From Argonema antarcticum A004/B2 (lineage in GTDB: Bacteria; Cyanobacteriota; Cyanobacteriia; Cyanobacteriales; Aerosakkonemataceae), in NCBI RefSeq assembly GCF_023333585.1, contig NZ_JAIQZN010000080.1, positions 685 through 32,684 on the forward strand: DNA of 32,000 nucleotides. The letters are read 5' to 3'. Below the pieces are notes generated by a model. The model saw only the letters and a list, made by a program, of their open reading frames with translations, was not told where the DNA came from and ran no database searches. Below, one piece after another: positions 1,934-27,994 of the stretch (position 1 is its first letter; each line of letters opens with the position of its first letter). The position numbers and the translations under genes are program-made.

Positions 1934-1934
1934 A

Positions 1935-3398
1935 ATGACTAATTTAATCGTGCAAGTTCTCGGTAATAGCGATGTTGAAGTTGATGGAGAAGATGGTTTA
2001 AAAAAGTTAGAACAACTCTATTCTCTAGAAGAGATCCAGGAACAGGCTCGGTGGAACGATCGAGATTTTATCGAACAACTAAACAGAGTTAGTTTTCCCT
2101 TAGTACAAAAGCTTTATGACAATTTATCTACTGATACGGATATTTTGTTTGCTTTTATCCTGACTGACCAAATTCGATGGACGCAAAATCATAATGGCAC
2201 GGCAGAATTGTGGAGCAGTGTCGTTACCTTAGATGGCATTTGGTGGAAAAATATTTTATTAGCGTGGTGTCGAAACAAAAATATAGGTTGTTATCCTATC
2301 CGGCTAAATGTTGAACCAAATGTACCTAATGGGGCGGCTGACTGGGAAGGAATGGCAGAAGCGATCGATCCTTTATTAGATAAATATATCGTATTTGAAA
2401 ATAACTCGATATATTTTACACCAGAAGAAGGAGACAAAATTCCCATAGAAAAAATTATCGTACAGCATAGCAGCGGTACACCTGCTTTAAGTGGTGCTTT
2501 ATATCTTTGGGGTATCGAACAAAAGCTAGCTGGTAAAAATATCGATTTTGTTTATATTTCCGAACAAGAAGCAGACTGTCCTATACATCCCGGTAAGCAT
2601 TGGCAGTGGCGGCTCAAAGTGCCTCAAATTCGCGAATTATTGGAAATTCAAGATTTTAGTGGCGCTTTAAAGTTATTAGATTCCCTTCATCCTAGATATC
2701 AAGAGTTAGTTGAGTCGCTCTCTTTTCTCGACCGATCGGTTTCTTTGAATTTAGAAGGGAGAAATCTAGAGGGAAAAGAAAGTATTATCGAACGGGTAAG
2801 TATTGCTTTGTGGAGTGAAAAAGCTTTTCGCGATCGCAGTCAGTGGATGCACTGGTATTTGAGAATGGCTGGTTCTTTTGAGTTAGCTTTATATTTGTTA
2901 TTGGAAAAGCAAGGAAATAACAATTATCAATGGGAAAATAAAAAATTGATTTTTAGGGGAGATAAAGACACAGGAGATATTGCTAAATCTGGGATTGCAA
3001 ATGTTGTAGCCAAACTCTTGACTACGGGTGAATTGATTTATTCATTTTACCATAAACCACCCACAACTTTTGACAGTCAGCCAATCAACGATTCAAATTG
3101 GGAGCAGTTTAACAGTTTTTATTTAAATAAATGGTTGCAAACCAAAAAAGAGTGTTATGGATTTAATTCTTTGAGAAATGAACTATTCCATAATTTAAGA
3201 GGTGACTTCATCGATAAACTATTGGATGAAAAAACCAAAAAAATTAATGGTAAAGTTGACCATAAAGAGCATCCATCTCAAGTAGCTGTTGATTGGTTGG
3301 AATATATCATAGGGCTAGCTGATTTAGCCGATGAAGTTAAAAATCGGTCTAATAAATATCGCGATCGCATCTCACAAATATTAACAATTTTGCAATGA
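1935..3398 (+). CDS. CARF-HEPN ancillary RNase (Csx1/Csm6-like)
   Basis: 487-aa ORF wedged between the membrane-protein gene and cas10, with an ATGA overlap at 3395-3398. The N-terminal half is Rossmann-like (LIVQVLGNSD; ILFAFILTDQ; IIVQHSSGTPALSGALYLWG, which resembles a CARF ligand loop). The C-terminal helical half carries the R-x4-H HEPN motif RNELFH (3174-3191). Assignment rests on motif and context only. Confidence 0.65.
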   Translation: MTNLIVQVLGNSDVEVDGEDGLKKLEQLYSLEEIQEQARWNDRDFIEQLNRVSFPLVQKLYDNLSTDTDILFAFILTDQIRWTQNHNGTAELWSSVVTLDGIWWKNILLAWCRNKNIGCYPIRLNVEPNVPNGAADWEGMAEAIDPLLDKYIVFENNSIYFTPEEGDKIPIEKIIVQHSSGTPALSGALYLWGIEQKLAGKNIDFVYISEQEADCPIHPGKHWQWRLKVPQIRELLEIQDFSGALKLLDSLHPRYQELVESLSFLDRSVSLNLEGRNLEGKESIIERVSIALWSEKAFRDRSQWMHWYLRMAGSFELALYLLLEKQGNNNYQWENKKLIFRGDKDTGDIAKSGIANVVAKLLTTGELIYSFYHKPPTTFDSQPINDSNWEQFNSFYLNKWLQTKKECYGFNSLRNELFHNLRGDFIDKLLDEKTKKINGKVDHKEHPSQVAVDWLEYIIGLADLADEVKNRSNKYRDRISQILTILQ

Positions 3399-5605
3399 AT
3401 ATACAAGACTGGTTATCCAAACAACAACAAATTTATCCCCAGCAACCGTTACCCGATGTAAGCCCTAATTTGTCTTGTCATCCAGTTAGCGGGGAATGGC
3501 AAGATTCGGCACATATAAAAAGTAAATTTTGGTGGGGTGGTGGCGCTTCGGAAGAGGCTTGTAACCAAATTGAGGGAGACAATTTTGACCATCTAAATCG
3601 AGTAGCGGTGCTATCATTTGGCCCAGTACAGACCTTTTTAGGTGGTGGACAAAGATTGAGAGATTGGGCGGTAGCTTCTTGGCTGTGTCACTATCTTTCA
3701 GCAGTTCTAATTTATCGCTGGGAAGAAGCAGGTGGTAAAGTTTTACTGCCTTTACATCAAAGTTCAAAATTAGTCAATTGGTTGAAAGGAAGTAATGCAG
3801 TTTCCGATCGATTTTGGCAGGCAGAATTACCAAACGTAATTACAGCATTATACCCCAATCGAGACAATTGGTTAGACCAAAGGAAAGAGGTTATTAAAAA
3901 CGAATGGAAACGTTTTCTAGAAGCTTTAGAAAAAGCTGCGATCGCTCAATATCCGCGCTTGCTTGATGGTCAAGGATGGCGCGTTATCCATTCTGATAAC
4001 CAATATCTTTGGTCAGTTTATACTGAAGAAACTGCCCTTAATATGGAAACTGTTAGCGAAGATATCGATAGTTTACATCAGCGAATTGAATCGCGAAAAA
4101 TTGGTCGAGAATGGTCGGGTACTTGGTGGGGAGGGCGTACCAGTCCCAGCGATGGTTGTCTGTCAATTTGGCATCCAGGTTTAAAATTAATTTATCAAGG
4201 TGGAATGTGGGGATTACCTGACAACCAGATCGACAGTTGGTGGGAAAGGGCTACTCAAGAAAGTAAATTACAAGGATTATTTTCTAGTACAGACCGTCTT
4301 AATAGTATCGAATTAGTTAAACGGTTAGCTTCTGTTCCCGAAATTATCGAACCAACTTTAAAAGATTTGTGGAAAAAAAATCCCCCCGAATGTCCTTGGG
4401 GTCGCTTTCCAGATCGAACTGCTGCTGCTGCTGCTTGGGTAACAACTTCTATCAAACCAGATCGATGGAATCAAGAAGTTGGAGTTTTGCATGAATACTA
4501 TCTTAACAAGAAACCAATCTATTTTTGGGGAATGCCCAAAGCAGACGAACAATCTCCTTCTTTTGCCCATCCGCGTGTATTGGAACGGCGAAATATTGAA
4601 GATGAAACGATGATTGAGGATTGGGAAAACAATGTACCGCAAGGTTGGGAAAGTACCATTGAATGGACGGTGGGATGGCGGGGTGATGGGGATAATATGG
4701 GTAAATGGTTATCAGGAGAACAATATGAAAAGCTAAGGTTGCTTTGGTCGCAATGGCATCCTAATTCTGCAATGATAACCCAACATAATTTAGGGATTAA
4801 TCCGGCGATCGATCCGGTTCAATGCAGGCAGATGGAATTACCCCATATCCTCGATCTATCGGTACTATTTGGATTGTGGAATGAACTGCTTTATCCTTTA
4901 ACAGAAGAAGTTCATCACGGGAAAGTCATTTTTGCTGGAGGTGATGATTTTCTGTTATTAGGGCCGTTAACTGAAGCGATTTCTCTTACCAGCGATTTGC
5001 ATTCGCTTTGGATGGGAGAAGCTTCGCCGTTAACACAACCTTTAGACCCGCCTGTAGATGGTTGGGTAGAGTACAATTCTCAAATTTACCCCATACCTGG
5101 AAAGAAGATGAATTTCAGTTTGGGGTTAGTAATTGCCCAGCGGAGGATTCCTCAGTCTTTGTGGCATCGAGGATTGAATCAGGCATATAAGGAAGCTAAA
5201 AATAAGGGGCGAAATCGAGTCTGTGTGAAAGTTTTGTTTAATAGCGGACAATCTTTAGATTGGATTTGTCCTTGGCCTTTGTGGAATTTGTTAATGCCTG
5301 TGGAACCGATCGCTACTAATCAAACTGAATTAAATCGCTGGGAAAAATTACTTTCTTACTTGGAAAGCAGTCGCTTGCGAGAGGTTTCTATTTTTACAGT
5401 ACGAGATTTGATTGAAACTCTGTGGGCTAGCGTGGGAATTCGTCTGACTTGGCAACAAGTTATGGATGTAGGACGCGCTGAATTTGAGGCAGAAATTAAA
5501 GATTGGCAGTGGTGGATTAATTGGATTAGTTTGAAAGCTTTTCTAGCAAGGCAAGCGCAACAACGGCAAAAGTGGGTGGAATTGATGACGGAGGGGAAAG
5601 CATGA
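3395..5605 (+). CDS. cas10: Cas10 (Cmr2) large subunit, HD domain absent, cyclase GGDD present
   Basis: 736 aa. The Palm-domain start VAVLSFGPVQTFLGGGQRLRDWAVASWLCHYLS lies about 70 aa from the N terminus. The cyclase motif is VIFAGGDDFLLLGP, with GGDD at 4937-4948. The gene is followed by cmr3-5-like genes. Confidence 0.9.
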   Translation: MNIQDWLSKQQQIYPQQPLPDVSPNLSCHPVSGEWQDSAHIKSKFWWGGGASEEACNQIEGDNFDHLNRVAVLSFGPVQTFLGGGQRLRDWAVASWLCHYLSAVLIYRWEEAGGKVLLPLHQSSKLVNWLKGSNAVSDRFWQAELPNVITALYPNRDNWLDQRKEVIKNEWKRFLEALEKAAIAQYPRLLDGQGWRVIHSDNQYLWSVYTEETALNMETVSEDIDSLHQRIESRKIGREWSGTWWGGRTSPSDGCLSIWHPGLKLIYQGGMWGLPDNQIDSWWERATQESKLQGLFSSTDRLNSIELVKRLASVPEIIEPTLKDLWKKNPPECPWGRFPDRTAAAAAWVTTSIKPDRWNQEVGVLHEYYLNKKPIYFWGMPKADEQSPSFAHPRVLERRNIEDETMIEDWENNVPQGWESTIEWTVGWRGDGDNMGKWLSGEQYEKLRLLWSQWHPNSAMITQHNLGINPAIDPVQCRQMELPHILDLSVLFGLWNELLYPLTEEVHHGKVIFAGGDDFLLLGPLTEAISLTSDLHSLWMGEASPLTQPLDPPVDGWVEYNSQIYPIPGKKMNFSLGLVIAQRRIPQSLWHRGLNQAYKEAKNKGRNRVCVKVLFNSGQSLDWICPWPLWNLLMPVEPIATNQTELNRWEKLLSYLESSRLREVSIFTVRDLIETLWASVGIRLTWQQVMDVGRAEFEAEIKDWQWWINWISLKAFLARQAQQRQKWVELMTEGKA

Positions 5606-6591
5606 GTAGATGGTATTCTATTACGCCAGCGGGAACGGTAGCGATCGGGAATCTGACTCCGGTCGGTCAAAATAGCGGACAAGTGGGCTGTCGTTGGCCA
5701 CCGAACGGTCATCATCTGGCAGCTTGTTTGAAATTACCATCAAATTGTCAAATTTGGGGGCCGTTTTGGTATAAGGGCGAAGGGAATATTTACGTTACAT
5801 TACCTCTGCCTGTTTATCGGTTGGAATCTAAAACAGAGGAACTACCCCAAGAAATTTTTCGCTTGCAATGGCGAGACGGACAATGGCAGAAACAATCGGA
5901 ACATCAAGAACAAGAAATTGAAATTATTGGCGGTAGATATTTAATTCGTGGCAATACTTTAAAGACATTTTGGCAGGCAGGAAAGTTGAAAAATCCGCAA
6001 CTGCAAAAATTTCCTTGGCAAACGCTTACTTTAAGTCACAATAGCCGGGAAGATTACCAAGTTAAAGATGAGGGAGGCTTTTTTGCGGAAATGACTACTT
6101 TAATGTCGCCTGGGTGGTCGATTTTGGTCAAGGTGATGGGAGATTGCAAGTTAGACGAGTGGGGTTTTTTGGGCGCAGGAGGTACGCCAGTTGCGATCGC
6201 GCCCGTAGAAATAAAGGAGGATTGGTTAACGGCAGATTGTCCCAACCCTACTGGTGCGGTTTTACTCACCGGGGCGTTGTGGCAACAGGGGTCATCCGGC
6301 ACACTCAGCAGCAAAGTATCTTGTCCCGTTCCACCATTGCCGATTAAAGCTTATGCTGCCGATACAGGCGTTCCCTGGCAATCTTGGAAAAAGGTCAAAC
6401 ACCGTGATGAAAAAGACAACCCCAATGCTGAAAAACGGGTAGAAGTTTTTACACCGGGAGAATGGATGACTCCCGCAGGCGCGGTGTATCTGTGGGAGGG
6501 AACTGCACCTTTGTTAAAATCCGAACCTTTGCCGGATGCTTACCATCGTCATGTTTTAGGTTACGGACATTTATGGTTATTTCAGGAGTGA
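5602..6591 (+). CDS. cmr3: Cmr3-like (Cas5-family) subunit
   Basis: The ATG at 5602 overlaps the cas10 stop (ATGA). The track's 5572 start is a GTG inside cas10. Size (~330 aa) and position fit Cmr3, and there are glycine-rich segments (FLGAGGTPVAIAP). No decisive motif was recognised. Confidence 0.55.
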   Translation: MSRWYSITPAGTVAIGNLTPVGQNSGQVGCRWPPNGHHLAACLKLPSNCQIWGPFWYKGEGNIYVTLPLPVYRLESKTEELPQEIFRLQWRDGQWQKQSEHQEQEIEIIGGRYLIRGNTLKTFWQAGKLKNPQLQKFPWQTLTLSHNSREDYQVKDEGGFFAEMTTLMSPGWSILVKVMGDCKLDEWGFLGAGGTPVAIAPVEIKEDWLTADCPNPTGAVLLTGALWQQGSSGTLSSKVSCPVPPLPIKAYAADTGVPWQSWKKVKHRDEKDNPNAEKRVEVFTPGEWMTPAGAVYLWEGTAPLLKSEPLPDAYHRHVLGYGHLWLFQE

Positions 6592-6596
6592 ATTAA

Positions 6597-7370
6597 ATGG
6601 CTATTGAATGGTTAATTTGTCGAGAACCTGTACATATTGGGGGTGCTGATAGTAGCAGTCGCGGTAATAATAATCCCATATTTCGATTGCCCGATCGCAG
6701 TCCGGCGATTCCTGGTAGTTCGTTGCGAGGGGCATTGCGAGAACACGCTAAAAGTGATGCTAACTATCAACCATTAGTAAAAAATTGGTTTGGTGGTGAG
6801 AATAATGATATTTCTCCGGGCAATATTTCTTTAGGTTGGGGTTGGCCTGTGTGGTGGCCTGTTCATGTGTTGGGATATGGTAATTGGTGGGTGAGTTGTC
6901 CCAGTTGGTTAAATCGATTTTGCCAATTATCTCAACGATCACCTTTGAACCTTGCTACAGATAAAGTTCATATTACGGAACCACAACTTCGTAATAAAAC
7001 GGTTTATTTGCGGTGGTTAAAGTTGACAAATGTACAGTATTATGCAAACGAATTGCCAGCGCCAGCGGAAGTACCAAAAGATAGGCGAATAGTGGTACCG
7101 GATACTAGCATTAATTTAATTGTGGATATGGGTTTGGTACGACAACCGCGAGTTAGTTTGAAAGATGAAGCGGATGAAAAAGGAAATTTAGTCAACAATT
7201 TATTTGCCGTTGAAGGTTTTCCACCAGGTTCGGTTTTTCTGCTCACTTGGACGACGCGGGAAAAAGTGGAAGAGTTAAACAAGTGGAATGATTTTTTAAT
7301 GGGAGAACATTATCTTGGGGGCTTGTGGAGTGTGGGTTATGGACGGGTGTTTATTTCTCATATTGTATAG
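6597..7370 (+). CDS. cmr4: Cmr4-like Cas7 backbone RAMP
   Basis: 257 aa. The RAMP signature is RGNNNPIFRLPDRSPAIPGSSLRGALREH. A Trp-rich segment (GWGWPVWWPVHVLGYGNWWVSCPSWLNRF) sits in the usual Cmr4 position, and the C terminus is glycine-rich (LGGLWSVGYGRV). Confidence 0.8.
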   Translation: MAIEWLICREPVHIGGADSSSRGNNNPIFRLPDRSPAIPGSSLRGALREHAKSDANYQPLVKNWFGGENNDISPGNISLGWGWPVWWPVHVLGYGNWWVSCPSWLNRFCQLSQRSPLNLATDKVHITEPQLRNKTVYLRWLKLTNVQYYANELPAPAEVPKDRRIVVPDTSINLIVDMGLVRQPRVSLKDEADEKGNLVNNLFAVEGFPPGSVFLLTWTTREKVEELNKWNDFLMGEHYLGGLWSVGYGRVFISHIV

Positions 7371-7383
7371 TTAGGAGTGGATT

Positions 7384-7821
7384 ATGAATCCCGTGAGTTC
7401 TTATGAGTTAGATAGAGAAGTTTTCCAACTGCTGAATCCTGGAGAAGGACAATTAGATAATTGGCAGGGGGCGGCAAGTGGCATTGCTGATTATGTAGCT
7501 AGTTGGGGTGTGGAACGCTTTTGGGCGATGTCGCGATCGCGAGTGTTATTAGGTGGCGAAATGCCCAATGCTGCAACGGGTTCCGATGAGGAAAAGCGTT
7601 ATTTTGCTTGGGGTGTAGCGCGGGTAGTTTTGTGCAAAATTGTCGGTACTGATTTGCGGATTGAAAAAACAATGACAACTGAAGCGTTTCAGAATCGCTT
7701 TCGAGAATTGGATTTTAATCAGCAGGTTTTGTTGACTGATTTGTTGATGGAAATTTCGGATACGATTCAGTTTTGGACAATGCGATTGAAGGATGCTAAG
7801 AAGTGTAATACGCAGGTTTGA
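7384..7821 (+). CDS. cmr5: Cmr5-like small subunit (Cas11)
   Basis: 145-aa ORF directly after cmr4 and the last gene of the operon. The call rests on size and position; no motif was seen. Confidence 0.5.
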   Translation: MNPVSSYELDREVFQLLNPGEGQLDNWQGAASGIADYVASWGVERFWAMSRSRVLLGGEMPNAATGSDEEKRYFAWGVARVVLCKIVGTDLRIEKTMTTEAFQNRFRELDFNQQVLLTDLLMEISDTIQFWTMRLKDAKKCNTQV

Positions 7822-7847
7822 TTGAGTGGTTTGGGTAATGAATTAAA

Positions 7848-7891
7848 AGAAACGAAGATGAAAACATTCTTCGCTTCTTTATTTTTAATTT
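7848..7891. terminator. Bidirectional intrinsic terminator between the cmr operon and the trailer end of array 1
   Basis: Stem AGAAACGAAGA (7848-7858) pairs with TCTTCGCTTCT (7868-7878) with one mismatch and a 9-nt loop. A T-run (TTATTTTTAATTT) follows on the + strand, and AAAA precedes it, which reads as a T-run on the minus strand. Confidence 0.7.
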
Positions 7892-7946
7892 ATAATGAAT
7901 ATTTTTACCTTCACCTATAGTCAGATATATCCTTTAACTGGACAGA

Positions 7947-8598
7947 GTTTTCACACCTTTTCCTTCTAATGAAGGTCGCTACTTTTTTATAATACCTTAT
8001 CCAACAATGGTTTTGTAAAGCTTCAACACCTTTACCTTCTAATGAAGGTCGCTACCTGATTCTATTACGGTGATTGCCAGCGCTACCACTTGTTTCAACA
8101 CCTTTACCTTCTAATGAAGGTCGCTACGTCTGGGATTTGTTACCGCCCAGCAAAGCGGCAATCAAATAGCGATGGTTTCAACACCTTTACCTTCTAATGA
8201 AGGTCGCTACCGCCCTAAAAGCATTAGGGCTAGGGGAGCGCCTGATAGTGGTTTCAACACCTTTACCTTCTAATGAAGGTCGCTACGTGACCGGCGCGAC
8301 CGGTTTTGTCGGCTCGGCGGTGGCGCGGGTGGTTTCAACACCTTTACCTTCTAATGAAGGTCGCTACTCGATCGCTAGCCCCTTGCATTTAGAGCTAGAG
8401 CAGTTGCCTCAGCTTTGTTTCAACACCTTTACCTTCTAATGAAGGTCGCTACCACCACTACAGCAGCAGCAGCAAAAACGGGACAAGACAGTTTCAACAC
8501 CTTTACCTTCTAATGAAGGTCGCTACGCCATCATGAAGGTGGGGATTTCTGCAAGTTCGCGCGTTTCAACACCTTTACCTTCTAATGAAGGTCGCTAC
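7947..8598 (-). CRISPR. CRISPR array 1: 9 repeats of 36 bp, 8 spacers of 36-49 bp
   Basis: Repeats start at 7947, 8020, 8092, 8175, 8251, 8332, 8417, 8491 and 8563. The + strand consensus is GTTTCAACACCTTTACCTTCTAATGAAGGTCGCTAC. The transcribed (minus) form is GTAGCGACCTTCATTAGAAGGTAAAGGTGTTGAAAC, which ends in the type III-like tag GTTGAAAC. The two lowest-coordinate repeats are degenerate (3 mismatches and 1 mismatch), marking the trailer. The conserved leader lies on the high-coordinate side. Confidence 0.97.
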
Positions 8599-8805
8599 CT
8601 ACCCCTATTCAACCCCTTATCCTGCCTGATTTCCAGCGGCAGTTTGCGAGGGATACCAATTTTCTTACCACAAACCTCCTTACTTGCACATCTTTAAACG
8701 TCTAAAACCCTTGCCCAGTAAGGCAGCGAGGCTCACAACGAAGTTGCGTTGTTTCAGCGATTTTTCATCACCCTCGCAATTTTAGGGAATTGGGGATAGC
8801 TGGGA
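8599..8805 (-). promoter_or_regulatory. Leader of array 1
   Basis: It flanks the non-degenerate end of the array. Its blocks are collinear with the array 2 leader: AAACCCTTGCCCAG (8705-8718), GTTTCAGCGAT (8751-8761), and the inverted pair TTGCGAGGG (8644-8652) / CCCTCGCAA (8771-8779). Confidence 0.7.
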
Positions 8806-8841
8806 GCGATCGCACTTTACTACACTACTAAGTGCGATCGC
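8806..8841. other. HIP1-based hairpin just downstream of the cmr6-like stop
   Basis: GCGATCGCAC (8806-8815) and GTGCGATCGC (8832-8841) form a perfect 10-bp inverted repeat with a 16-nt loop. The same design recurs at 27888-27921 and 29747-29784. Confidence 0.6.
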
Positions 8842-8849
8842 CTGATTCT

Positions 8850-10364
8850 TCAACATTGCCATACAACCTGGAAACCTTTACTTGTCAGCGTCGCTTCCAC
8901 AGCTTGATCAAATACAGTAATCAAACAATAATTCTCATATTGTCGCACCGCATAACCAGATGGTCGAGTCTCAGAATTTCCACACCATTGGGGGCGATTT
9001 GTGGCTGTGGTACTGCAAACTTTATGCACGATATCTCGCCATTTATCTCCTTTTCCCTGCCAAATACTAATCAGAGAACCAGAAACTATTGCTGGCTTTG
9101 ACATCGCACGCCAACCATAATTTTCACCTAATTTTGCGATTAGTTCCCGCAAACGCTTAATTAACTCATTCAAAGGTTCTTCCAAATTAACTGGCGTAAC
9201 AGTAAATTCACTACCCCGAAAACCATAAAAACGTTCTAAAACGTGGGGTGGTCTGCGCCAACCTGGGCCAAGTCCACCAAGGCGACTAGCTAAAGCAAGC
9301 AATCCACCAATTAAAGGTTTAAATTCTTCATTGCAATCAACACTAATTATCCAAGTTGCGTGTGCTTGACGAGCCGGAATATTAGTATAATCATTGGAAG
9401 TTTGACCGAGCATTCTGGGAATAGATTGCAAATAGCTAGTTAAAGTTAATTTAGCCGGACAACCCAAACCTCCAAATATTTTATCAGTCAGTTTTAAGGC
9501 AGTTTCCTGCGAAAACAAAGATAATGCCAATCTGGTAAAGTAACCGCGTAAATTAGCCCGCAATACTTGAGGCGTCCAGCGGTATTGTCCGGTTTGATTT
9601 TCCCCTGGTTTGTGACTTTGGACGCAAGGTTTCATTCCGGTGAGTTGAATCTCCCAATTTCCTGAAGGAATAAAGGGCGCTAATCGACCAAAACCCGATG
9701 CTTTTCCCCGTCCGATTCCTTGGAATTGCAGCATTTCTTTTAAGCGTGTTTCCAGCCAAGTTTTTTGTTCTTTGCTAGAAGTATCTTTCAGTAAAACTTG
9801 CAAGCAGAATTTATCGAAATTCGGACTGGGAGGTTTAGGAGATACTTGCCATTGAATGCCTAAATTCTTACTTTTTTCGTCAAATAACTGCCATTTTTGT
9901 TGAGCGTTTAATGGATAAGGTTTGAGGTTTTTTAGTAGAATGGTTTCAAAGCGAATTTTGCGGGGTAGCCAGTGAGTGCGATCGCTTGCCAGCAAACTTT
10001 GCCAAAAAGCTTGTTCTTCACTCGGTAAATCATTCCATTTTCCCTGAATCCAACTTAGCAAAGCGCCCCTAATGCTAGAACCGGGAATGCAGGGAACACC
10101 GCCAATTTGGGCGGGTAAAATACCTCCTTCTGGAAAACTACCCCCACCAACTTGAATCGGACTAATAATTTGCAATTTGTCCAAACGTACCGTGTAAGCA
10201 TCAGCATTTTTGGGCGAATAACTTCCTTTTGTATCCCAAGCATCAATAATTATGGCAGAATCTTCTTTACCTTCAATAATATCCTCAGTTTTCGGTGTCC
10301 AGCCTCTTTCTTTTGTCTCTTCAACTGTGTACCATTGGGGCATTTCTTCAGGTAATAGCGCCAT
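8850..10364 (-). CDS. Two-RAMP-domain protein: Cmr6-like N-terminal half, Cmr1-like C-terminal half
   Basis: 504 aa. The first RAMP has GGVPCIPGSSIRGALLSW and the glycine loop QGIGRGKASGFGRL. The second RAMP has LRANLRGYFTRLAL, IFGGLGCPAKLTL and LGGLGPGWRRP. No separate cmr1 or cmr6 occurs elsewhere in the window. Confidence 0.6.
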   Translation of the reverse strand: MALLPEEMPQWYTVEETKERGWTPKTEDIIEGKEDSAIIIDAWDTKGSYSPKNADAYTVRLDKLQIISPIQVGGGSFPEGGILPAQIGGVPCIPGSSIRGALLSWIQGKWNDLPSEEQAFWQSLLASDRTHWLPRKIRFETILLKNLKPYPLNAQQKWQLFDEKSKNLGIQWQVSPKPPSPNFDKFCLQVLLKDTSSKEQKTWLETRLKEMLQFQGIGRGKASGFGRLAPFIPSGNWEIQLTGMKPCVQSHKPGENQTGQYRWTPQVLRANLRGYFTRLALSLFSQETALKLTDKIFGGLGCPAKLTLTSYLQSIPRMLGQTSNDYTNIPARQAHATWIISVDCNEEFKPLIGGLLALASRLGGLGPGWRRPPHVLERFYGFRGSEFTVTPVNLEEPLNELIKRLRELIAKLGENYGWRAMSKPAIVSGSLISIWQGKGDKWRDIVHKVCSTTATNRPQWCGNSETRPSGYAVRQYENYCLITVFDQAVEATLTSKGFQVVWQC

Positions 10365-10437
10365 GATTTTTTCCTTCCTGCTAACTTAAATATTGAATAG
10401 TGTTTCTTTCAACCTCATTTAGATTTCTCCAACAAGA

Positions 10438-10474
10438 AATCTGAGGACTTAGAACTATTCTAAATCCTCAGATT
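10438..10474. promoter_or_regulatory. Long near-perfect palindrome upstream of the cmr6-like gene
   Basis: AATCTGAGGA (10438-10447) pairs with TCCTCAGATT (10465-10474). An inner pair TTAGAA/TTCTAA surrounds a 3-nt loop. It lies about 75 bp upstream of the start at 10364. It could be an operator or a 5'-UTR structure. Confidence 0.4.
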
Positions 10475-10475
10475 C

Positions 10476-10530
10476 AAAAAAAGCGGATATTTTAACTAAA
10501 GTTTTCTTTCTTTAAGAAAGGTTTATCCGC
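10476..10530 (-). terminator. Intrinsic terminator (minus strand) downstream of the solitary repeat
   Basis: Outer stem GCGGATA (10483-10489) pairs with TATCCGC (10524-10530). It encloses an inner hairpin CTTTCT/AGAAAG (10506-10520). On the minus strand it is followed by T7 (A7 at 10476-10482 on the + strand). Confidence 0.6.
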
Positions 10531-10560
10531 TAGGTAATCGCGCACTTTCGAGAGACGACT

Positions 10561-10594
10561 GTTTCAACACCTTTTCCCTATCTAAAGGGTCTTC
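10561..10594 (-). repeat. Solitary CRISPR-repeat-like element (third repeat variant)
   Basis: The + strand reads GTTTCAACACCTTTTCCCTATCTAAAGGGTCTTC. The first 16 nt are identical to the array 2 repeat, and it has its own small stem (CCCT..AGGG) at the position of the array hairpins. No second repeat lies nearby. Confidence 0.75.
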
Positions 10595-10671
10595 TTTACT
10601 TTAATAGGAGAAAGCCTGGAAAATAAGGTCATAATGGCATTGACATTTGTTCGCTTCAGTGATATATACAC

Positions 10672-10968
10672 TTAATCAAGCGGACAAAGTAACCTCCAAA
10701 GCGGTGTGGGAATGTCCTCAAAATGTTCTAGCAGAAAGTCCATAATTGCCAGATGGCGCAAATCGTTAGGATGGGGATTTCTGCCTAAATCTCCTTGTTT
10801 AAACCACCCGCGCACGGTAGACTCGGAACGAGAACAAATTAAAGCTATTTGTTCGTAAGTTACTGCCCATTTATTGTAAAATTGTCTGGGTGTCATCCCT
10901 AATTGGCAATGGCTGTACAATTGAATCAAAGTTAATTCTCGTTCCTGTAAAATTCGAGGTTTATTCAT
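10672..10968 (-). CDS. Small helix-turn-helix protein
   Basis: 98 aa with an HTH-like segment VTYEQIALICSRSESTVRGWF. It sits inside the cas block, downstream of a toxin-like ORF. Confidence 0.5.
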   Translation of the reverse strand: MNKPRILQERELTLIQLYSHCQLGMTPRQFYNKWAVTYEQIALICSRSESTVRGWFKQGDLGRNPHPNDLRHLAIMDFLLEHFEDIPTPLWRLLCPLD

Positions 10969-11121
10969 ATTTTTCGATAGGTAATTGATGGAATTTATCT
11001 GTCATCTTCCAACCAATGACTAATGACTATAGGACTTACGCAAAGCCCCTATCTGTAGGGTGCGTTAGCGCTAGCGTAACGCACCATCTACCATATTTAG
11101 TGTAGCTGCGTAACTCCTGGA

Positions 11122-11391
11122 CTAATGACTATCAATAGCCATCACCCAAATGGTTTTACCCTCTTTGTATTTCCAGTAAAAACGCAAAGCCATCGAAGCA
11201 GAAGAACCCCAAATTTCGCCTTTTTTCTGTTTATATCGATGAGTCCTCAAACTTCTGTAATTTGGCCCTTCTGCTGCTAAAAGTTGGAAAGCTTTATGGT
11301 ATTGTTTTTGCGTTTTTACTGAAAATACCGCCAATTGCTTTTTTACTTTGGGAGTGACAATCACCTCAAATTGGATGGCTTGATAGTCCAT
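11122..11391 (-). CDS. RelE/HigB-like toxin-fold protein (putative)
   Basis: 89 aa. The C-terminal pattern SLRTHRYKQKKGEIWGSSASMALRFYWKYKEGKTIWVMAIDSH resembles the RelE/ParE/HigB consensus: L-x-x-H-x-L-K-G, W-S, R-(I/F)-x-(F/Y), and a terminal H. Confidence 0.4.
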   Translation of the reverse strand: MDYQAIQFEVIVTPKVKKQLAVFSVKTQKQYHKAFQLLAAEGPNYRSLRTHRYKQKKGEIWGSSASMALRFYWKYKEGKTIWVMAIDSH

Positions 11392-11407
11392 GAGATTTGA
11401 TTTTTAG

Positions 11408-11447
11408 GTACGTTGTTGCGTTTTAGCGCTAAAGCGCAACAACGTAC
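11408..11447. other. 40-nt near-perfect palindrome between cas2 and the toxin-like ORF
   Basis: GTACGTTGTTGCGTTTTAGCGCTAAAGCGCAACAACGTAC has one T/G position. A T-run follows on the + strand. A related palindrome with an AGCGCT core lies at 11060-11084. Confidence 0.6.
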
Positions 11448-11460
11448 TTTTAATTAATGA

Positions 11461-11739
11461 CTAAACGATGAAAGCCGCATCATCTACTGCAAAGTCTGGC
11501 TTTATTCCTAAGACCGCTACTTTGCAACGACAGGGGTCGGATAGGGGATAAAATCTGAGTTGGTCTTCTTTGGAATTGAGTATTTTGAACAACCGTTTTT
11601 GAATGTTCTCGTACTGCTTTTCATCCAGTACCGCCTCGAATACCGACTTCTGCACTCGCAATCCGTAAGTTTCTAATAATTTAGAAACTTTATAGCGGCG
11701 ACTATCATCTACGATGTCATAGCAAATGAGGTAAAACAT
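11461..11739 (-). CDS. cas2: Cas2
   Basis: The sequence MFYLICYDIVDDSRRYKVSKLLETYGLRVQKSVFE.. is typical of the Cas2 ferredoxin fold. The ATG at 11739-11737 overlaps the cas1 stop (TAATG). The longer track ORF to 11880 runs inside cas1. Confidence 0.9.
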   Translation of the reverse strand: MFYLICYDIVDDSRRYKVSKLLETYGLRVQKSVFEAVLDEKQYENIQKRLFKILNSKEDQLRFYPLSDPCRCKVAVLGIKPDFAVDDAAFIV

Positions 11740-12803
11740 TACACTTTTACCAGTATTCGCTGTTCTGTTGGCTGATTGCTGACAGGAGAGATAGCAGTAT
11801 CGGTATCCCATTTCAGCAGCATGGGGCGGTAGAATTCTACATCGCCTAACAAGTAAGCAATGTATTCTTGTACTTGCCATGCTAAACAGCGACGGTAGCT
11901 GAGTTTTCCTGCATATAAATGAGTCACTTCAGTTTGCAGCTTTTCTTCCCAATGCTTGATAAACTTTTTCAACGTAGCAGGATATAGAGATATTGCGTCC
12001 TGTTGGGAAGGTCGGGTAAAATCGTCAGGTGTCAGAATTTGCGAAATTGCCAAATTTGCCACTAATTCGTCTACCAAGAAAGGACGAAATTCGACGGCGA
12101 AATCTTCAATCAAAGATAGTTCATCTTGGCAATAAAAATGCAGGTTGCCGAAGTTGGGATTGAGTCCGGCTGATTGTACAAATCCGTAAATGGTATGATT
12201 TAGCAGGGCATTACCCAGGCGTAACACGCTGTTAATGGAGTGGGAGTGAGGGCGACAAGTACACTGGAAGTTGAAAGCTTTTGCGAGTAACTCGGTGATG
12301 GCTTGATAGTACAAAGAAGCGGCTGTAGTTGAGTATTCCCGCAGTGCGTGGATAGAATCTGCCATCGGCAAATCATCGATTAAAAGGTCTAGCATTTCCA
12401 TCGCTATTTCTGCTTTGGGAGTGGAATGATTTGCACTCAAGCGCAACAGAACGATGCCACAGTTATGCAGGTAAGCGCGGACGATGCTTTCAGCTATGGT
12501 TTTGGGAAAGTTGGGGTTTTGGGCGCGTTTGATTTGCTGGGGAAAGTATTTGGCAGGATGTAGCGATTCTAGTTGTAAGCGTCCTAAATAGTTTCCTTGG
12601 TTGTCGAGGAATAGGACGGGAATTGCCAGAGATTGAGCTAAAGATGCGGCGTTCGGTTGTAAGTGGCAATTACCGAATAGAGTAATTTTGCTTACTTGGG
12701 AAGAATGCACTTGCAGGCACAGTTTGTTTTGGTGGAATACTTGGAAGTAATGATGTTTTACTTTTAAGCAAGTGCCTGGTTCGGTCATGTAGATTGCTGT
12801 CAT
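11739..12803 (-). CDS. cas1: Cas1 without RT, a paralogue of the Cas1 domain of the RT-Cas1 fusion
   Basis: 354 aa. Along its length it parallels RT-Cas1 residues 332-665, for example MTAIYMTEPGTCLKV vs MTTLYVTDQGAYLSI, FGNLH in both, and FIKHWEEKLQTEVTH vs FLKHWEEKLQSELTH. Acidic and His active-site positions are retained (REYS, GNLH, IEDFAVEFR). Confidence 0.9.
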   Translation of the reverse strand: MTAIYMTEPGTCLKVKHHYFQVFHQNKLCLQVHSSQVSKITLFGNCHLQPNAASLAQSLAIPVLFLDNQGNYLGRLQLESLHPAKYFPQQIKRAQNPNFPKTIAESIVRAYLHNCGIVLLRLSANHSTPKAEIAMEMLDLLIDDLPMADSIHALREYSTTAASLYYQAITELLAKAFNFQCTCRPHSHSINSVLRLGNALLNHTIYGFVQSAGLNPNFGNLHFYCQDELSLIEDFAVEFRPFLVDELVANLAISQILTPDDFTRPSQQDAISLYPATLKKFIKHWEEKLQTEVTHLYAGKLSYRRCLAWQVQEYIAYLLGDVEFYRPMLLKWDTDTAISPVSNQPTEQRILVKV

Positions 12804-12842
12804 AATTTGCTTTTAAACTCTACATTCCTATCTTCTCAACCG

Positions 12843-12900
12843 GGTATTTGAGTTGGTATTTGAGTACGCATATTAGTATATGAGTTGGTATATGAGTTGG
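12843..12900 (-). promoter_or_regulatory. 2+2 set of 12-bp direct repeats upstream of cas1
   Basis: Units are GGTATTTGAGTT (12843), GGTATTTGAGTA (12855), a 9-bp gap, GTATATGAGTT (12876) and GGTATATGAGTT (12887). A candidate -10 (TAGAGT on the minus strand, 12817-12822) lies about 20 bp downstream. The block is paralogous to 16386-16444. Confidence 0.6.
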
Positions 12901-12978
12901 CGATTTGGTCAAAAATGGTTTTTTAGTTTTTATTTTGTAGGTAGAGAAAGAGAATCGCTTTTACTCCGCAACATTAAA

Positions 12979-13206
12979 TATAGCTAGTGACTAGGGAAGA
13001 GGAAAAAGGGTTAAGGAGTAAGAGATGGAAAGACCAAAGGTAAGAGTTGGAGTTGTCCTAATCGCCAAGGTGGTTGCTATAGCTAGGGACTAGGGGCTTT
13101 CTTGCTAGGGGCGAGCGTTGAGGGAGAGGGAAGAGGTTACTCCGTAAGGGATTATGGACTTCATGTAACAGTTGGAGTTGGCTTAATCGCCCTGGCGGTT
13201 GCTATA
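12979..13206. repeat. Degenerate tandem duplication (units of ~99 and ~125 bp)
   Basis: TATAGCTAG(T/G)GACTAGGG occurs at 12979 and 13078. AGTTGGAGTTG.C.TAATCGCC..GG.GGTTGCTATA occurs at 13045-13082 and 13169-13206, matching at 33 of 38 positions. Confidence 0.7.
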
Positions 13207-13213
13207 TATTACA

Positions 13214-13244
13214 GTCCCCAGGATAAGCAGATTATCCTGGGGAC
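13214..13244 (-). terminator. Strong hairpin at the trailer end of array 2
   Basis: GTCCCCAGGATAA (13214-13226) pairs with TTATCCTGGGGAC (13232-13244), a perfect 13-bp stem with a 5-nt loop. It lies 6 nt beyond the last repeat in the transcription direction. There is no clear U-tract. Confidence 0.5.
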
Positions 13245-13250
13245 AATTGG

Positions 13251-14102
13251 GTTTCAACACCTTTTCTCTTCAGTAAGAGTCAATCGTGAGTACAAATGGT
13301 ACATGGACGATAGCCCTTGGGTAGAGGTTTCAACACCTTTTCTCTTCAGTAAGAGTCAATCCAGCATTTGCTGGTAACGACCCGTATGAAAAACTGATGG
13401 GTTTCAACACCTTTTCTCTTCAGTAAGAGTCAATCTCTTTTTAACAGACCAAAAAGTTGGTGGAGCTTTATAAAGTTTCAACACCTTTTCTCTTCAGTAA
13501 GAGTCAATCATGGAGACACTGTAATTTGCGCAGGTTCCGCGGACGAACAGTTTCAACACCTTTTCTCTTCAGTAAGAGTCAATCTTTGCAATGGTAATTT
13601 CTATGATTGCCAGTGGAACAGTTTCAACACCTTTTCTCTTCAGTAAGAGTCAATCAAGAGCTACCAGGGTGGGCGGTAACCGTCTGCCCTGAAAGTTTCA
13701 ACACCTTTTCTCTTCAGTAAGAGTCAATCCGGGAGCAAATCCAGGAGCGGCGGCAACAGCAAAACAATCGCGTTTCAACACCTTTTCTCTTCAGTAAGAG
13801 TCAATCCAGCAATAGGGTTGGTCGGCACTGGTGTCGCTTGGGGAATGTTTCAACACCTTTTCTCTTCAGTAAGAGTCAATCAATCTTGATAAAATTGAGA
13901 AAAAAGCAGAGGAAGCAAGTTTCAACACCTTTTCTCTTCAGTAAGAGTCAATCTTGTCTGGTTTTGATAGTCTTAGCTGGGCCCGCCGGCCTAGTTTCAA
14001 CACCTTTTCTCTTCAGTAAGAGTCAATCAGTGGCAAACCGACTCGACGCACGAGTCAGAAGCAGCTTGTTTCAACACCTTTTCTCTTCAGTAAGAGTCAA
14101 TC
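13251..14102 (-). CRISPR. CRISPR array 2: 12 repeats of 35 bp, 11 spacers of 36-42 bp
   Basis: Repeats start at 13251, 13327, 13401, 13475, 13550, 13621, 13695, 13772, 13847, 13919, 13994 and 14068, and all are identical. The + strand reads GTTTCAACACCTTTTCTCTTCAGTAAGAGTCAATC. The transcribed form is GATTGACTCTTACTGAAGAGAAAAGGTGTTGAAAC. Confidence 0.97.
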
Positions 14103-14340
14103 CCTTAGCTTCTAGAAGCCAAGCGTTGAGCTAATTCTACACCGCCAGATCTGAGGGGGTCAAGTTGGACGATCGAAAACGAGACAATTCTTCTCAATAA
14201 CCCAGAATAACACCCACCTTAAACCCTTACCCAGAGAGCTATCCGAGGGGGTCAACGAAAGAATGAGGGTTTCAGCGATCGACTGACCCTCTCAGATGCT
14301 TATTATTAGGACGAATATTGATAAGCTTTGCTAATCAAGT
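14103..14340 (-). promoter_or_regulatory. Leader of array 2
   Basis: It lies between the RT-cas1 stop and the first repeat. Conserved blocks are AAACCCTTACCCAG (14221-14234), GTTTCAGCGAT (14269-14279), and the inverted pair ATCTGAGGGGGTC (14149-14161) / GACCCTCTCAGAT (14285-14297). Confidence 0.7.
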
Positions 14341-16338
14341 TCACAGAGTCCAAATCATCGGACGGTAAGTATCAACTTCCCCCATCAAACAAGCAACATA
14401 TTCCCGCACCTGCAACTCCAAACAGCGGCGAAAACTGACTTTGTATCCAGTATGCGGGTGCGTCAATTCCGACTGCAATTTTTCTTCCCAATGCTTCAAA
14501 AACTTTTTTAGCGCATGAGGTTGCAGAAACACGCCACCACGTTCATCTGGCAACGTAAAATCCTCCGATGTGAAAATTTTAGAATTAACCAAATAAGACA
14601 CCAAAGAATCTACCAACTGCGCCCGAAACTCTTCCATCAAATCCGAAACCAATGCCGGATGATTATCGCGAGGAACGTGCAAATTACCGAAATGAGTATG
14701 CAGTCCAATCAATTCGATAAAAGAGCAAACATTTTGACTCAGCAGCGTATATCCCAAACTCATCAAACTGTTAATTGGGTCGGTAGGAGGGCGCTTTGTT
14801 CGCTTTTCAAATGCAAAAGTTCCAGTAAACAGAGAACCCAATGCTTGAAAATACAAAGTGGCTGCTTTTCCTTCATATCCCCGTAACGCATCCATCGATT
14901 CAGCATCAGGTAATTTCTCCATCAATTCAGCAATTGATTCCAGGGATTGCAAGGCAATTTTGCTGGGACGACGACGATTTAATTTGAGCAATAAAGCGCG
15001 GGAATTATGTAATTTAGCCCAAACAATGGCTTCTGCTTGCCGTCGCGTGAATTCAGGATTTAGAGAACATTCAACCTGCCGTGCCAAGTATTCCACCTTC
15101 GCGTGTCCGTCCGTTTGCAAACGCCCGAAATAGCGGCCTTTCTGGGAAAGATACATGACCGGAATTCGCCGCCGCAAAGCACAAGATACCGCTCCGTGCG
15201 ATAAATTGCAACAACCGAATAAGACAATATGGCTGACCCGATTGGCTGGCACTTTAATCCGCAACTCCCGCTGATAGAAAACTTCAAATTGCTGGTTATG
15301 AATGCTCAAGTAAGCACCTTGGTCAGTTACGTACAAAGTAGTCATGGGTTCCTTCCAAAAATGTTCGGTATTGGCAATGGGAAAGTTAATAGGTTTGAGT
15401 AAGCTACAAGCTTTGGGAGGTTGGGAAAAAACGGGAGTTTTTCGAGCTTTTTGTTGATAAGGCATCCCGGAATCCCGGAGTGCGAGTCCTCCTAGTTGAG
15501 GAGGTGGCGGCGGAATTAATTCTCCTTTAGAAAAGCGATAACCTAGAAAAGTAAACTCTTCATCGGGAGTGAAAATATGGGTTTTTCCCGGTTGAAGCTT
15601 CAGATAGATATCGCCCAACCATTGGTTAATTTGTGACAAAGCGCGATTAGCTTGTATCCAATCGCCAGATGCAATGACAAAATCATCGCCATAGCGCACC
15701 AAATTAAATCCCTTACTCAAACAAAATCGATCGAATTCGGTGAGGTACAAGTTAGCTAAAGCACCGGAAAGAATGGCACCTTGCAATACTCCCTGACCGA
15801 AATTTCGGCGAACAGCACCAATTACGATGTCGGATTTTAGTTGCTGTTCGATTAATTGCAGTAAAATAGGTTCTAGCTGCAATTGCTCTAAGTCGGTTAG
15901 CAGTAACGCCCAGCAGAGGTTGTCGAAAAATTTCTCAATATCTGCCTTGACAATCCAAGTGGGTTGGAACTGATAATAGGAATACAGATGTTTGACTGCC
16001 ATCTGAATTCCCCGACCGGGACGGTAAGCGTAGCTGCAATCGAGAAATCGTTCTTCAAGGGGGAAGTAAAGTTCGTTCAGCAGCAGGCGAGAGACAATTC
16101 TATCCCGCACTGTCTGAATGCCAACCAACCGCTTACCACCACTCGATTTGGATAGATAAAATCCTTTGGCGGGACTAACCGTGTAGGTTTCGTTTTGCAG
16201 TCGATGGTGTAAAATTTGTAACTGCTGACGAGCAATTGGGGCAAATAAATCGGTGGTAATACCATCAATACCAGCACTTTTACTTCCCTTGCGAACTTGT
16301 TCCCAAGCAATCTGGAGAAGTTCTGGGGTTAATTCCAT
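14341..16338 (-). CDS. Reverse transcriptase-Cas1 fusion
   Basis: 665 aa. The N-terminal half has group II intron-like RT motifs: YAYRPGRG, KADIEKFFDNL, GVLQGAILSGALANLYL, the YxDD box RYGDDFVI (Tyr codon at 15693-15691), LKLQPGKTHI and FTFLGYRF. A proline linker PPPPPQ follows. The Cas1 domain starts at residue 332 (ATG at 15345). There is no N-terminal Cas6-like domain. Confidence 0.93.
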   Translation of the reverse strand: MELTPELLQIAWEQVRKGSKSAGIDGITTDLFAPIARQQLQILHHRLQNETYTVSPAKGFYLSKSSGGKRLVGIQTVRDRIVSRLLLNELYFPLEERFLDCSYAYRPGRGIQMAVKHLYSYYQFQPTWIVKADIEKFFDNLCWALLLTDLEQLQLEPILLQLIEQQLKSDIVIGAVRRNFGQGVLQGAILSGALANLYLTEFDRFCLSKGFNLVRYGDDFVIASGDWIQANRALSQINQWLGDIYLKLQPGKTHIFTPDEEFTFLGYRFSKGELIPPPPPQLGGLALRDSGMPYQQKARKTPVFSQPPKACSLLKPINFPIANTEHFWKEPMTTLYVTDQGAYLSIHNQQFEVFYQRELRIKVPANRVSHIVLFGCCNLSHGAVSCALRRRIPVMYLSQKGRYFGRLQTDGHAKVEYLARQVECSLNPEFTRRQAEAIVWAKLHNSRALLLKLNRRRPSKIALQSLESIAELMEKLPDAESMDALRGYEGKAATLYFQALGSLFTGTFAFEKRTKRPPTDPINSLMSLGYTLLSQNVCSFIELIGLHTHFGNLHVPRDNHPALVSDLMEEFRAQLVDSLVSYLVNSKIFTSEDFTLPDERGGVFLQPHALKKFLKHWEEKLQSELTHPHTGYKVSFRRCLELQVREYVACLMGEVDTYRPMIWTL

Positions 16339-16385
16339 TTACCTCCTGGGACTGTTGAAACTCTATATTTCCATCGTTGCAGCCC

Positions 16386-16444
16386 GGTATATGAGTTCGT
16401 GTATGAGTATTTGACTTATGTATATGAGTTGGTGTATGACTTGG
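16386..16444. promoter_or_regulatory. 2+2 set of 12-bp direct repeats in the RT-cas1 / HTH-NACHT divergent intergenic region
   Basis: Units are GGTATATGAGTT (16386), CGTGTATGAGTA (16398), a 10-bp gap, GTATATGAGTT (16420) and GGTGTATGACTT (16431). A candidate -10 TAGAGT (minus strand, 16360-16365) and an AGGAGG Shine-Dalgarno sequence precede the ATG at 16338. Confidence 0.6.
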
Positions 16445-16463
16445 ATAGAGTTTTGAAGAATTG

Positions 16464-27867: not shown

Positions 27868-27994
27868 GTAGATCGCATTTATGAGAACGATCGCACCTCC
27901 CCCCATCTCTAGGTGCGATCGCCTTAATGACGTATGGATGGGAAAATTTGGGCTAACAGAGGTGCGATCGCGCAGCGTGCCGTAGGCATATCGC
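27868..27994. repeat. Left copy of a ~79-bp direct repeat, interrupted by a ~40-bp insertion
   Basis: GTAGATCGCATTTATGAGA.CGATCGCACC..CCCCATCTCTA.GTGCGATCGC (27868-27922) plus GTGCGATCGCGCAGCGTG.CG.AGGCATATCGC (27962-27994) matches the contiguous copy at 29728-29806. Confidence 0.8.

Follow-up and report, generated by a model that had tools for sequence, protein, structure and literature searches.

A conserved solitary CRISPR repeat unit at the end of a cyanobacterial adaptation cassette: a candidate gene for a crRNA-like RNA in a type III-B locus

What is a single CRISPR repeat doing outside any array, between the adaptation genes and an effector gene of a CRISPR-Cas locus? This question is raised by a stretch of 32,000 nt from the cyanobacterium Argonema antarcticum A004/B2 (assembly GCF_023333585.1, contig NZ_JAIQZN010000080.1, positions 685 to 32,684 of the forward strand), which is called the window here and numbered from its first letter. 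It contains a type III-B CRISPR-Cas locus with two arrays, in which cas6 was not found. An earlier note on this DNA had described a lone repeat variant on the minus strand between a helix-turn-helix (HTH) gene and a cmr6-like gene, followed by about 30 nt and a hairpin with a run of seven T residues (10530-10476), and had proposed that it encodes a regulatory RNA resembling a CRISPR RNA (crRNA). The repeat is present, with its bounds corrected from 10594-10561 to 10596-10561, and so are the intervening segment and the hairpin. Because the position of this unit is conserved, its handle co-varies with that of the resident arrays, and its repeat and terminator are under purifying selection, it is a selected, crRNA-like unit and not array debris. 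It is favoured here as a putative stand-alone gene for a guide RNA. Its parts are the following.

10596-10561, minus strand: solitary CRISPR repeat AAGAAGACCCTTTAGATAGGGAAAAGGTGTTGAAAC, with a predicted 13/14-nt 5' handle in its tail
10574-10561, minus strand: 14-nt single-stranded tail of this repeat, AAAGGTGTTGAAAC, identical to the 3' tail of the repeats in both arrays
10560-10531, minus strand: spacer-like (psi-spacer or guide) segment AGTCGTCTCTCGAAAGTGCGCGATTACCTA, 30 nt
10530-10483, minus strand: terminator hairpin GCGGATA...TATCCGC, followed by T7 at 10482-10476

The repeat starts 75 nt past the stop codon of the HTH gene (HTH98). The pattern of its tail is matched 21 times in the window, eight times in array 1, 12 times in array 2 and once in the solitary repeat, while 0.01 matches are expected from shuffled sequences. 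The unit thus carries the same handle as the array crRNAs, as had been claimed, with all 14 tail nucleotides shared with both arrays and the hairpin in register. Its stem consists of 4 bp, CCCT/AGGG (10589-10586 and 10579-10576), and the array repeats carry CCTTC/GAAGG and CTCTT/AAGAG stems at the matching position; pairing has therefore been kept in three repeat variants though the bases changed. On folding, all three show a short stem and then an unpaired tail of 14-15 nt. The terminator hairpin has a folding energy of -12.7 kcal/mol (z = -2.8) with T7 directly behind it, as is expected of an intrinsic terminator; a consensus terminator scan missed it because its loop is long and branched. 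The terminator region CTAGCGGATAAACCTTTCTTAAAGAAAGAAAACTTTAGTTAAAAT, read by eye, resembles a degenerate second repeat (compare the repeat of array 1, GTAGCGACCTTCATTAGAAGGTAAAGGTGTTGAAAC), and MAFFT also aligned this region to the repeats. With this likeness, the unit may represent a mini-array of the form repeat-spacer-psi-repeat, in which the distal copy has been turned into a terminator. Rfam gave no match in 7800-14400, and a DNA search of PLSDB with the unit sequence gave none either.

Comparison with close relatives was based on 32 genome loci gathered via the cmr6-like protein (L numbers denote individual loci). In Floridaenema evergladense (L025) the unit is 81% identical over 151 nt and lies directly after the HTH gene, and in a metagenomic relative (L033) the entire arrangement after the HTH gene is intact. 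Between the window and L025, the repeat is identical at 34 of 36 positions (0.94) and the tail at 14 of 14 (1.0), both counts holding for L033 as well, and the terminator is well conserved, also in L033. The identity of this pair at 4-fold degenerate sites is 0.62 in cas1, 0.81 in cas2, 0.54 in the gene for an 89-aa protein and 0.68 in the HTH gene; measured against these sites, the repeat and the terminator are under selection and the spacer body is approximately neutral. Even where the synonymous sites of a pair are saturated (0.12-0.41), identity is still 0.69-0.92 in the repeat and 0.71-1.0 in the tail, and nucleotides 1-10 of the guide are 0.8-0.9 identical in one subgroup of these pairs. 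The repeat, the tail and the terminator of the unit are under purifying selection, and the decayed remnant without conservation in relatives that the earlier note had allowed for does not agree with these values. In L001, the closest locus by Cmr6 (82% identical), the place of the unit is taken by repeats like those of miniature inverted-repeat transposable elements (MITEs), and there is no HTH gene within 6 kb upstream. There, two copies of a MITE-like element of about 300 nt with internal inverted repeats lie upstream of the cmr6-like gene (5340-5900 of L001).

A wider collection of about 95 loci was gathered via the HTH protein family (about 100 aa, 155 matches), a family widespread among filamentous cyanobacteria. 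The term cas-linked is used here for loci that have cas2 or the 89-aa gene upstream and enough sequence downstream. In them, cas1 and cas2 are followed by the 89-aa gene and the HTH gene, in some cases by an open reading frame (ORF) of 57-68 aa designated orfX, and then by the solitary repeat. This order defines a recurrent cassette, cas1-cas2-relE-like-HTH98-(orfX)-solitary repeat unit. Most cas-linked loci, from many genera, use a second repeat family with the stem GACTTC...GAAGTC and the tail GAAyTAATGGAAAC, in which the anatomy is that of the window: hairpin, 14-nt tail, a stretch of about 30-35 nt, and a second hairpin followed by a run of T. The terminator begins 29-39 nt past the repeat in most units. 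For 11 units of the second family, RNAalifold predicted only the repeat hairpin and the terminator helices, with the guide unpaired, and compensatory changes occur in 12 of the 17 predicted pairs of the two elements together. A single covariance model for both repeat families was dropped, as MAFFT had aligned the terminator of the window to the repeat of the other family. An intact solitary repeat is found in about 25 of 28 cas-linked loci, complete plasmids included, a count that overstates the number of independent cases because many loci are closely related; of the three exceptions, one is without a repeat, one has a convergent array and one has a true array at the site. Among the plasmids is the complete 220-kb pANACY.01 of Anabaena cylindrica PCC 7122, whose unit lies near position 157,800.

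None of the collected loci in which no cas genes were found upstream holds an intact unit, a count to which the same reservation about close relatives applies. In eight related loci of this kind (L050, L051, L055, L061, L066, L068, L072 and L085) the repeat has decayed: lying about 400-550 nt past the HTH gene, it has no stem left and a tail changed to GAATTAATCGAGAT, while the spacer-like start ACCTGCGTTAG and the terminator are kept. This decay of the repeat next to a retained terminator argues that the repeat has a cas-dependent role of its own. Furthermore, in each of the nine loci with both a unit and a resident array, the two have identical tails, and four tail variants are represented; the stems differ. 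Even the odd tail variant GAATAAAAATGGAAAC of L057 is shared between unit and array, and L052 and L054 show a difference at one tail position. In L052-L054 the unit is accompanied, 350 nt beyond, by a true array with a different repeat stem. The co-variation of the handle argues that an RNA of the unit is recognised by the same machinery as the array crRNAs. In Allocoleopsis, on the other hand, a true array follows an orfX-like gene. The unit may go back to the founder or the end of an array at the cassette position, a history that agrees with its present conservation. Planktothrix paucivesiculata PCC 9631 (L013, 5780-5990) was also seen to have a mini-array of one spacer (repeat, 39 nt, degenerate repeat), which stands immediately upstream of the cmr6-like gene under a TTGACA-17-TATTCT promoter of its own; no HTH gene or cas1-cas2 was found within 6 kb upstream, and the end of the degenerate repeat is now a TTGACA box facing cmr6.

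We give about half of our credence to the reading that the unit is a stand-alone gene for one crRNA-like guide RNA at the 3' end of the adaptation cassette, as its anatomy and sequence conservation suggest. Such a gene would share the transcript of the cassette, or transcription would start in the conserved inverted-repeat region immediately before the unit. The transcript would be cut in the single-stranded stretch behind the stem to leave the 13/14-nt handle, presumably by RNase E by analogy with the variant type III-B system (III-Bv) of Synechocystis; if there is processing, a host RNase is the more likely agent because the locus is without cas6. The terminator hairpin would set the 3' end and give a product of mature crRNA length, 14 plus about 30 nt, a proposal that fits the spacing of 29-39 nt between repeat and terminator. 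This product would be loaded into the Cmr complex like a normal crRNA, and the loaded complex would recognise RNA elsewhere in the genome by limited pairing of the 10-17 nt of the guide next to the handle. These nucleotides are the only part of the guide conserved within subfamilies, with ACCTGCGTTnAGTTnAAT in at least seven loci and ATTGGCATTT in five. More doubtful is the further step that a dedicated and vertically maintained crRNA-like gene programs Cmr in this way against cellular RNA for control at the RNA level or as a safeguard circuit, which would possibly involve spacer acquisition or the neighbouring pair of RelE-like toxin and HTH protein.

A number of observations weigh against a guide RNA gene. 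The stem of the solitary repeat folds at -5.3 kcal/mol, which is no better than shuffled sequences. The guide segment is identical at 17 of 30 positions between the window and L025 (0.55-0.60 against 0.68 at 4-fold sites), and its nucleotides 11-30 evolve at or above the neutral rate, as in L089 and L116, where they are 0.60 identical and the 4-fold sites 0.83. A promoter scan found none on the minus strand near the unit and no convincing promoter for it. The array of pANACY.01 ends in a degenerate repeat, about 33 nt and a terminator, and because of this likeness the anatomy alone could equally belong to the end of an array. In PMC10120712 and bioRxiv 10.1101/2024.12.27.630466, RNA-targeting type III effectors are not credited with any functional crRNA-like regulator. 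Finally, the guide has no apparent target in or next to the locus. Its best ungapped match in the window is 22/41, and the RNAduplex energies of -27 to -31 kcal/mol all lie within noise. In 14 loci, pairing of the guide with six neighbouring segments (covering the toxin-gene region, the HTH region, cas1-cas2, the downstream genes and antisense strands) showed no excess over shuffled guides (mean z 0.1-0.5), and the best match in the whole of pANACY.01 (220 kb), 20/32, equals that of shuffled guides. Ungapped matching, longest exact runs and fuzzy 16-17-mers gave only isolated matches in related loci, none of them repeated in relatives. Because the guide shows no excess pairing in the window, the 14 loci or the plasmid, a circuit that acts on its own locus is not supported; a target, if there is one, may lie elsewhere in the genome.

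Several single matches were considered and set aside. The guide of L025 matches the 3' end of the cmr6-like gene at 18 of 20 positions; the abundant HIP1 palindrome is part of this match, and neither the window nor L033 offers a counterpart. In L057, 13 nt of the 3' half of the guide (4527-4539) are exactly complementary to the part of the upstream orfX mRNA that codes for AYLQVL (4677-4689), a match that is not reproduced in other loci, and a 20/30 match of the L060 guide is likewise not reproduced in relatives. A scan of IMG/VR for the complement of the conserved guide start gave 59 matches with unrelated flanks, at chance level. The guide start was also considered as an anti-repeat, as in a trans-activating crRNA (tracrRNA), and a 12/20 match was found in one locus only (L176). 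Hairpin elements containing HIP1 (GCGATCGC) lie at gene ends of the window at 8801-8843, 27882-27924 and 29763-29784, the first right after the stop codon of the cmr6-like gene, and they give rise to spurious partial matches with guides in which HIP1-like sequence is present.

Among the other explanations, the one that we take most seriously, while still thinking it unlikely, is a cis-acting module at the end of the cassette. Here, the terminator would insulate the cas1-cas2-relE-like-HTH transcript from the cmr6-like gene, the repeat would be a processing site that leaves a protective 3' hairpin, and the handle-bearing fragment would be a by-product, at most a competitor that titrates Cmr or RNase E. 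The unit indeed always stands at the 3' end of the cassette, in the second family the unit abuts the stop codon of orfX and leaves no room for a promoter, a second strong hairpin precedes cmr6 in the window, and a module of this type would account for a guide with an unconserved body and no target found. However, a terminator alone needs neither a tail that tracks the resident handle in nine of nine loci nor a spacing of 29-39 nt, the conserved nucleotides 1-10 or 1-17 of the guide in subfamilies are left unexplained, and where no cas genes are found upstream it is the repeat that decays while the terminator persists. That last point also bears on the idea of a functionless vestige, in which an array after the cassette has collapsed to one repeat, a trailer and a terminator, and to which we give only a slim chance. 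It draws on the true array behind the orfX-like gene in Allocoleopsis, on the similar array ends within the family (pANACY.01), on the degenerate second repeat still seen in some units (the window, L035 and L013) and on the judgement of Shmakov et al. that type III mini-arrays are degraded (PMC10120712). A vestige, however, would hardly keep its repeat and tail far above synonymous sites across genera, differ from the resident arrays in the stem while tracking them in the tail, lose the repeat exactly where cas genes are not found upstream, or coexist with an array as in L052-L054.

The earlier note had likened the unit to CreTA/CreR-type elements, that is, to a circuit in which the RNA guides the effector to a partial match in a cas promoter, a 5' untranslated region (UTR) or the RelE-like gene, and in which loss of the effector de-represses the target. 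Such circuits are known in type I and type V systems (PMC10120712; bioRxiv 10.1101/2024.12.27.630466), a gene with a RelE fold and an HTH gene lie directly upstream of the unit, intact units occur only in loci with the toxin-like gene or cas2 upstream, and the 18/20 match of the L025 guide would be of the expected kind. Nevertheless, this match carries the HIP1 palindrome, and the searches described above gave no excess complementarity to cas promoters, 5' UTRs or the RelE-like gene. Moreover, no creT-like RNA gene was found beside the unit, and type III effectors bind RNA, not promoter DNA. The proposal is therefore unsupported, and we regard a circuit of this type as quite improbable.

The stand-alone guide RNA gene that we favour has its nearest counterparts among crRNA-like RNAs, a class that comprises the crRNA-like RNAs (crlRNAs) of type I-C, CreR and CreA of type I-B, the mini-arrays of types I-F1 and V-A, scaRNA and the long tracrRNA of type II. 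Regulators of this kind have been established for the DNA-binding effectors of types I, II and V. The unit shares with this class a repeat with the resident handle, a spacer-like segment, a 3' hairpin, a conserved position in a cas locus and the lack of a recognisable leader. Its anatomy matches the solitary repeat units of type I-C, which give crRNA-like RNAs of 48-50 nt that carry a 5' handle and have their 3' end within a hairpin (bioRxiv 10.1101/2024.12.27.630466). In contrast to the members of the class, the unit belongs to an RNA-targeting type III-B variant, has no partially complementary target found in or near its locus, is attached to the adaptation cassette instead of an effector promoter, and would probably be processed by a host RNase, cas6 not having been found. 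CreTA of haloarchaeal type I-B systems, which consists of the antitoxin RNA creA and the toxin RNA creT, is similar in that a degenerate mini-CRISPR lies beside a toxin gene in the cas locus. In the window, however, the neighbouring toxin is a protein with a RelE fold and not a small RNA, no complementarity between guide and target was seen, and the effector binds RNA and not a promoter; the unit is not a CreTA, since neither an RNA toxin nor a matching promoter was found. Racr RNA anti-CRISPRs, which are solitary repeat units of phages and plasmids (PMC10651486), also mimic the resident repeat and are probably expressed as small RNAs. Racrs sit on mobile elements away from cas genes, whereas the unit is syntenic in the cas locus, between adaptation and effector genes, and decays where no cas genes are found upstream; for this reason it is not a Racr. 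In the systematic survey by Shmakov et al., mini-arrays were found near 10-14% of type III loci and were judged degraded, having neither positional conservation nor targets (PMC10120712, 2023). The cassette unit differs from these in its positional conservation, selection and handle co-variation, and shares with them the lack of a target. It may be filed as a variant of the crRNA-like solitary-repeat units, here in a type III-B system and with a putative function.

The remainder of the locus is made up of the following genes, arrays and sites.

80-1933, plus strand: CorA-like gene
1935-3398, plus strand: Csx1 (CARF-HEPN) gene
3395-5605, plus strand: cas10/cmr2
5572-6591, plus strand: cmr3
6597-7370, plus strand: cmr4
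7384-7821, plus strand: cmr5
8611-7947, minus strand: CRISPR array 1 with leader, repeat GTAGCGACCTTCATTAGAAGGTAAAGGTGTTGAAAC, degenerate repeats at the 7947 end
10364-8850, minus strand: cmr6-like RAMP gene, 504 aa, directly downstream of the solitary repeat unit
10438-10474, no strand assigned: 37-bp palindrome between the unit and the cmr6-like gene
10627-10644, minus strand: inverted repeat GTCAATGCCATTATGACC of the GTCAA-N8-TGACC type, upstream of the solitary repeat
10968-10672, minus strand: 98-aa homeodomain-like HTH gene (HTH98), the last protein gene of the adaptation cassette
11391-11122, minus strand: 89-aa toxin-like gene with a RelE/YafQ/YoeB fold (AlphaFold model and Foldseek)
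start codon within 11742-11880, end at 11461, minus strand: cas2 of the adaptation cassette
12803-11739, minus strand: cas1 of the adaptation cassette
14102-13250, minus strand: CRISPR array 2, repeat GATTGACTCTTACTGAAGAGAAAAGGTGTTGAAAC
14163-14134, minus strand: promoter-like site of array 2
16338-14341, minus strand: RT-cas1

On the minus strand, the order of transcription is RT-cas1, array 2, cas1, cas2, the 89-aa gene, the HTH gene, the unit, the cmr6-like gene and array 1. Both arrays are read on this strand because their repeats then end in GTTGAAAC, the promoter-like site of array 2 lies on that side and the degenerate repeats of array 1 are at the far end; array spacers in the window are 36-49 nt long. 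Cas6 was not found among the proteins tested with PADLOC, Pfam and NCBIfam (ORFs of at least 80 aa in 80-19934, plus 28059-28640). The locus thus has cas10/cmr2 and cmr3-cmr6, no cas6 that could be found, and repeats with a stem and a long single-stranded tail, and on this gene content and repeat shape the system probably belongs to III-Bv. In CRISPR3 of Synechocystis sp. PCC 6803, a III-Bv system, crRNAs of 42 or 48 nt with a 13/14-nt handle are matured by RNase E and RNase J, and RNase E cuts behind the repeat stem (PMC12464536). The two systems are alike in having cmr genes without cas6 and in the shape of the repeat, whereas no solitary repeat unit is described in Synechocystis (PMC12464536). 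Two adaptation modules occur in the window, RT-Cas1 (14341-16338) beside array 2 and a separate Cas1-Cas2. The CorA-like membrane protein and the CARF-HEPN protein Csx1, effectors of cyclic oligoadenylate (cOA), are encoded together at 80-3398. Unrelated to the unit, a 2276-aa ORF (20956-27786) contains three 345-nt tandem repeats and several shorter repeat families.

The two small proteins encoded upstream of the unit deserve separate mention. Sequence-level identification of the 89-aa protein failed in Pfam, NCBIfam, PADLOC and PDB, and a comparison of folds was therefore needed. Its AlphaFold model (pLDDT 88) matches RelE, YafQ and YoeB in Foldseek at a TM score of 0.7-0.8, in agreement with the names in the source databases; R49, H51 and R52 are invariant, and S88-H89 stands at the C-terminus. 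The label "toxin-like ORF" given to it before is right in view of this fold. The gene is seen only in the cas-linked version of the cassette, where it stands before the HTH gene in the order of HigBA-type pairs. The HTH protein, which is 88% identical in L025, has a weak likeness to homeodomains; from this gene order it could be the antitoxin of the toxin, or else a regulator. The antitoxin reading is tempered because the HTH gene also occurs with orfX on conjugative Nostoc plasmids, without the toxin gene and without cas genes.

Promoter-like and operator-like sites surround the unit. The TATATA box that had been offered as a -10 element for either strand exists, at 10663-10668 and not at 10666-10671, and it serves one strand at best: its perfect TTGACA partner (10640-10645, 17-nt spacing, TG before the -10 box) is found on the plus strand only, so that it is not a -10 box for the strand of the unit. 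This plus-strand site faces away from the unit, antisense into the 3' end of the HTH gene. As read from the locus comparisons, its -10 box is not conserved in relatives and its TTGACA belongs to a conserved inverted repeat. The latter, GTCAA-N8-TGACC followed by TGTCTTT, occurs in 29 of 80 loci (for example L041, 4470-4490, and L178, 9469-9489), where it lies downstream of the HTH gene, either in the gap between the HTH gene and the unit or in that between the HTH gene and orfX; conjugative Nostoc plasmids that carry the HTH gene and orfX but no cas genes are among them. For the unit it may be an operator or promoter element, and it is also a candidate binding site of the HTH protein. The 37-bp palindrome on the other side of the unit, at 10438-10474, was confirmed, and its RNA folds into a hairpin of 18 bp (-23.8 kcal/mol, z = -7.5) with a U-rich run behind it. 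The palindrome is base-for-base identical in L033 (about 935-972) though synonymous sites differ by about 30%, and in L025 it is split by an IS200/IS605 element with tnpA and tnpB (about 4012-4031 and 5912-5930). Its role may be that of a second hairpin resembling a terminator, or of an operator for the cmr6-like gene. Elsewhere in the window, tandem GTATATGAGTTGG motifs lie upstream of cas1 (12844-12900) and between RT-cas1 and a neighbouring gene for 1157 aa (16387-16444), and similar ACTCATATAC repeats lie upstream of cas1 in Scytonema (L177, about 7985-8035) and Anabaena (pANACY.01, about 154140-154200) loci; these motifs may be regulator binding sites.

A unit that is positionally conserved, co-varies in its handle with the resident arrays and depends on cas genes in a type III-B system argues against the view that type III mini-arrays are non-functional. 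It raises the question of how a constitutive, self-encoded guide could keep from setting off Cas10 signalling in a locus that also encodes the effectors Csx1 and CorA. If the unit works as a guide, RNA-targeting effectors would also have been recruited for cellular tasks, and type III systems would have, in a dedicated RNA that programs Cmr, if it is real, their first functional regulator of the crRNA-like kind.

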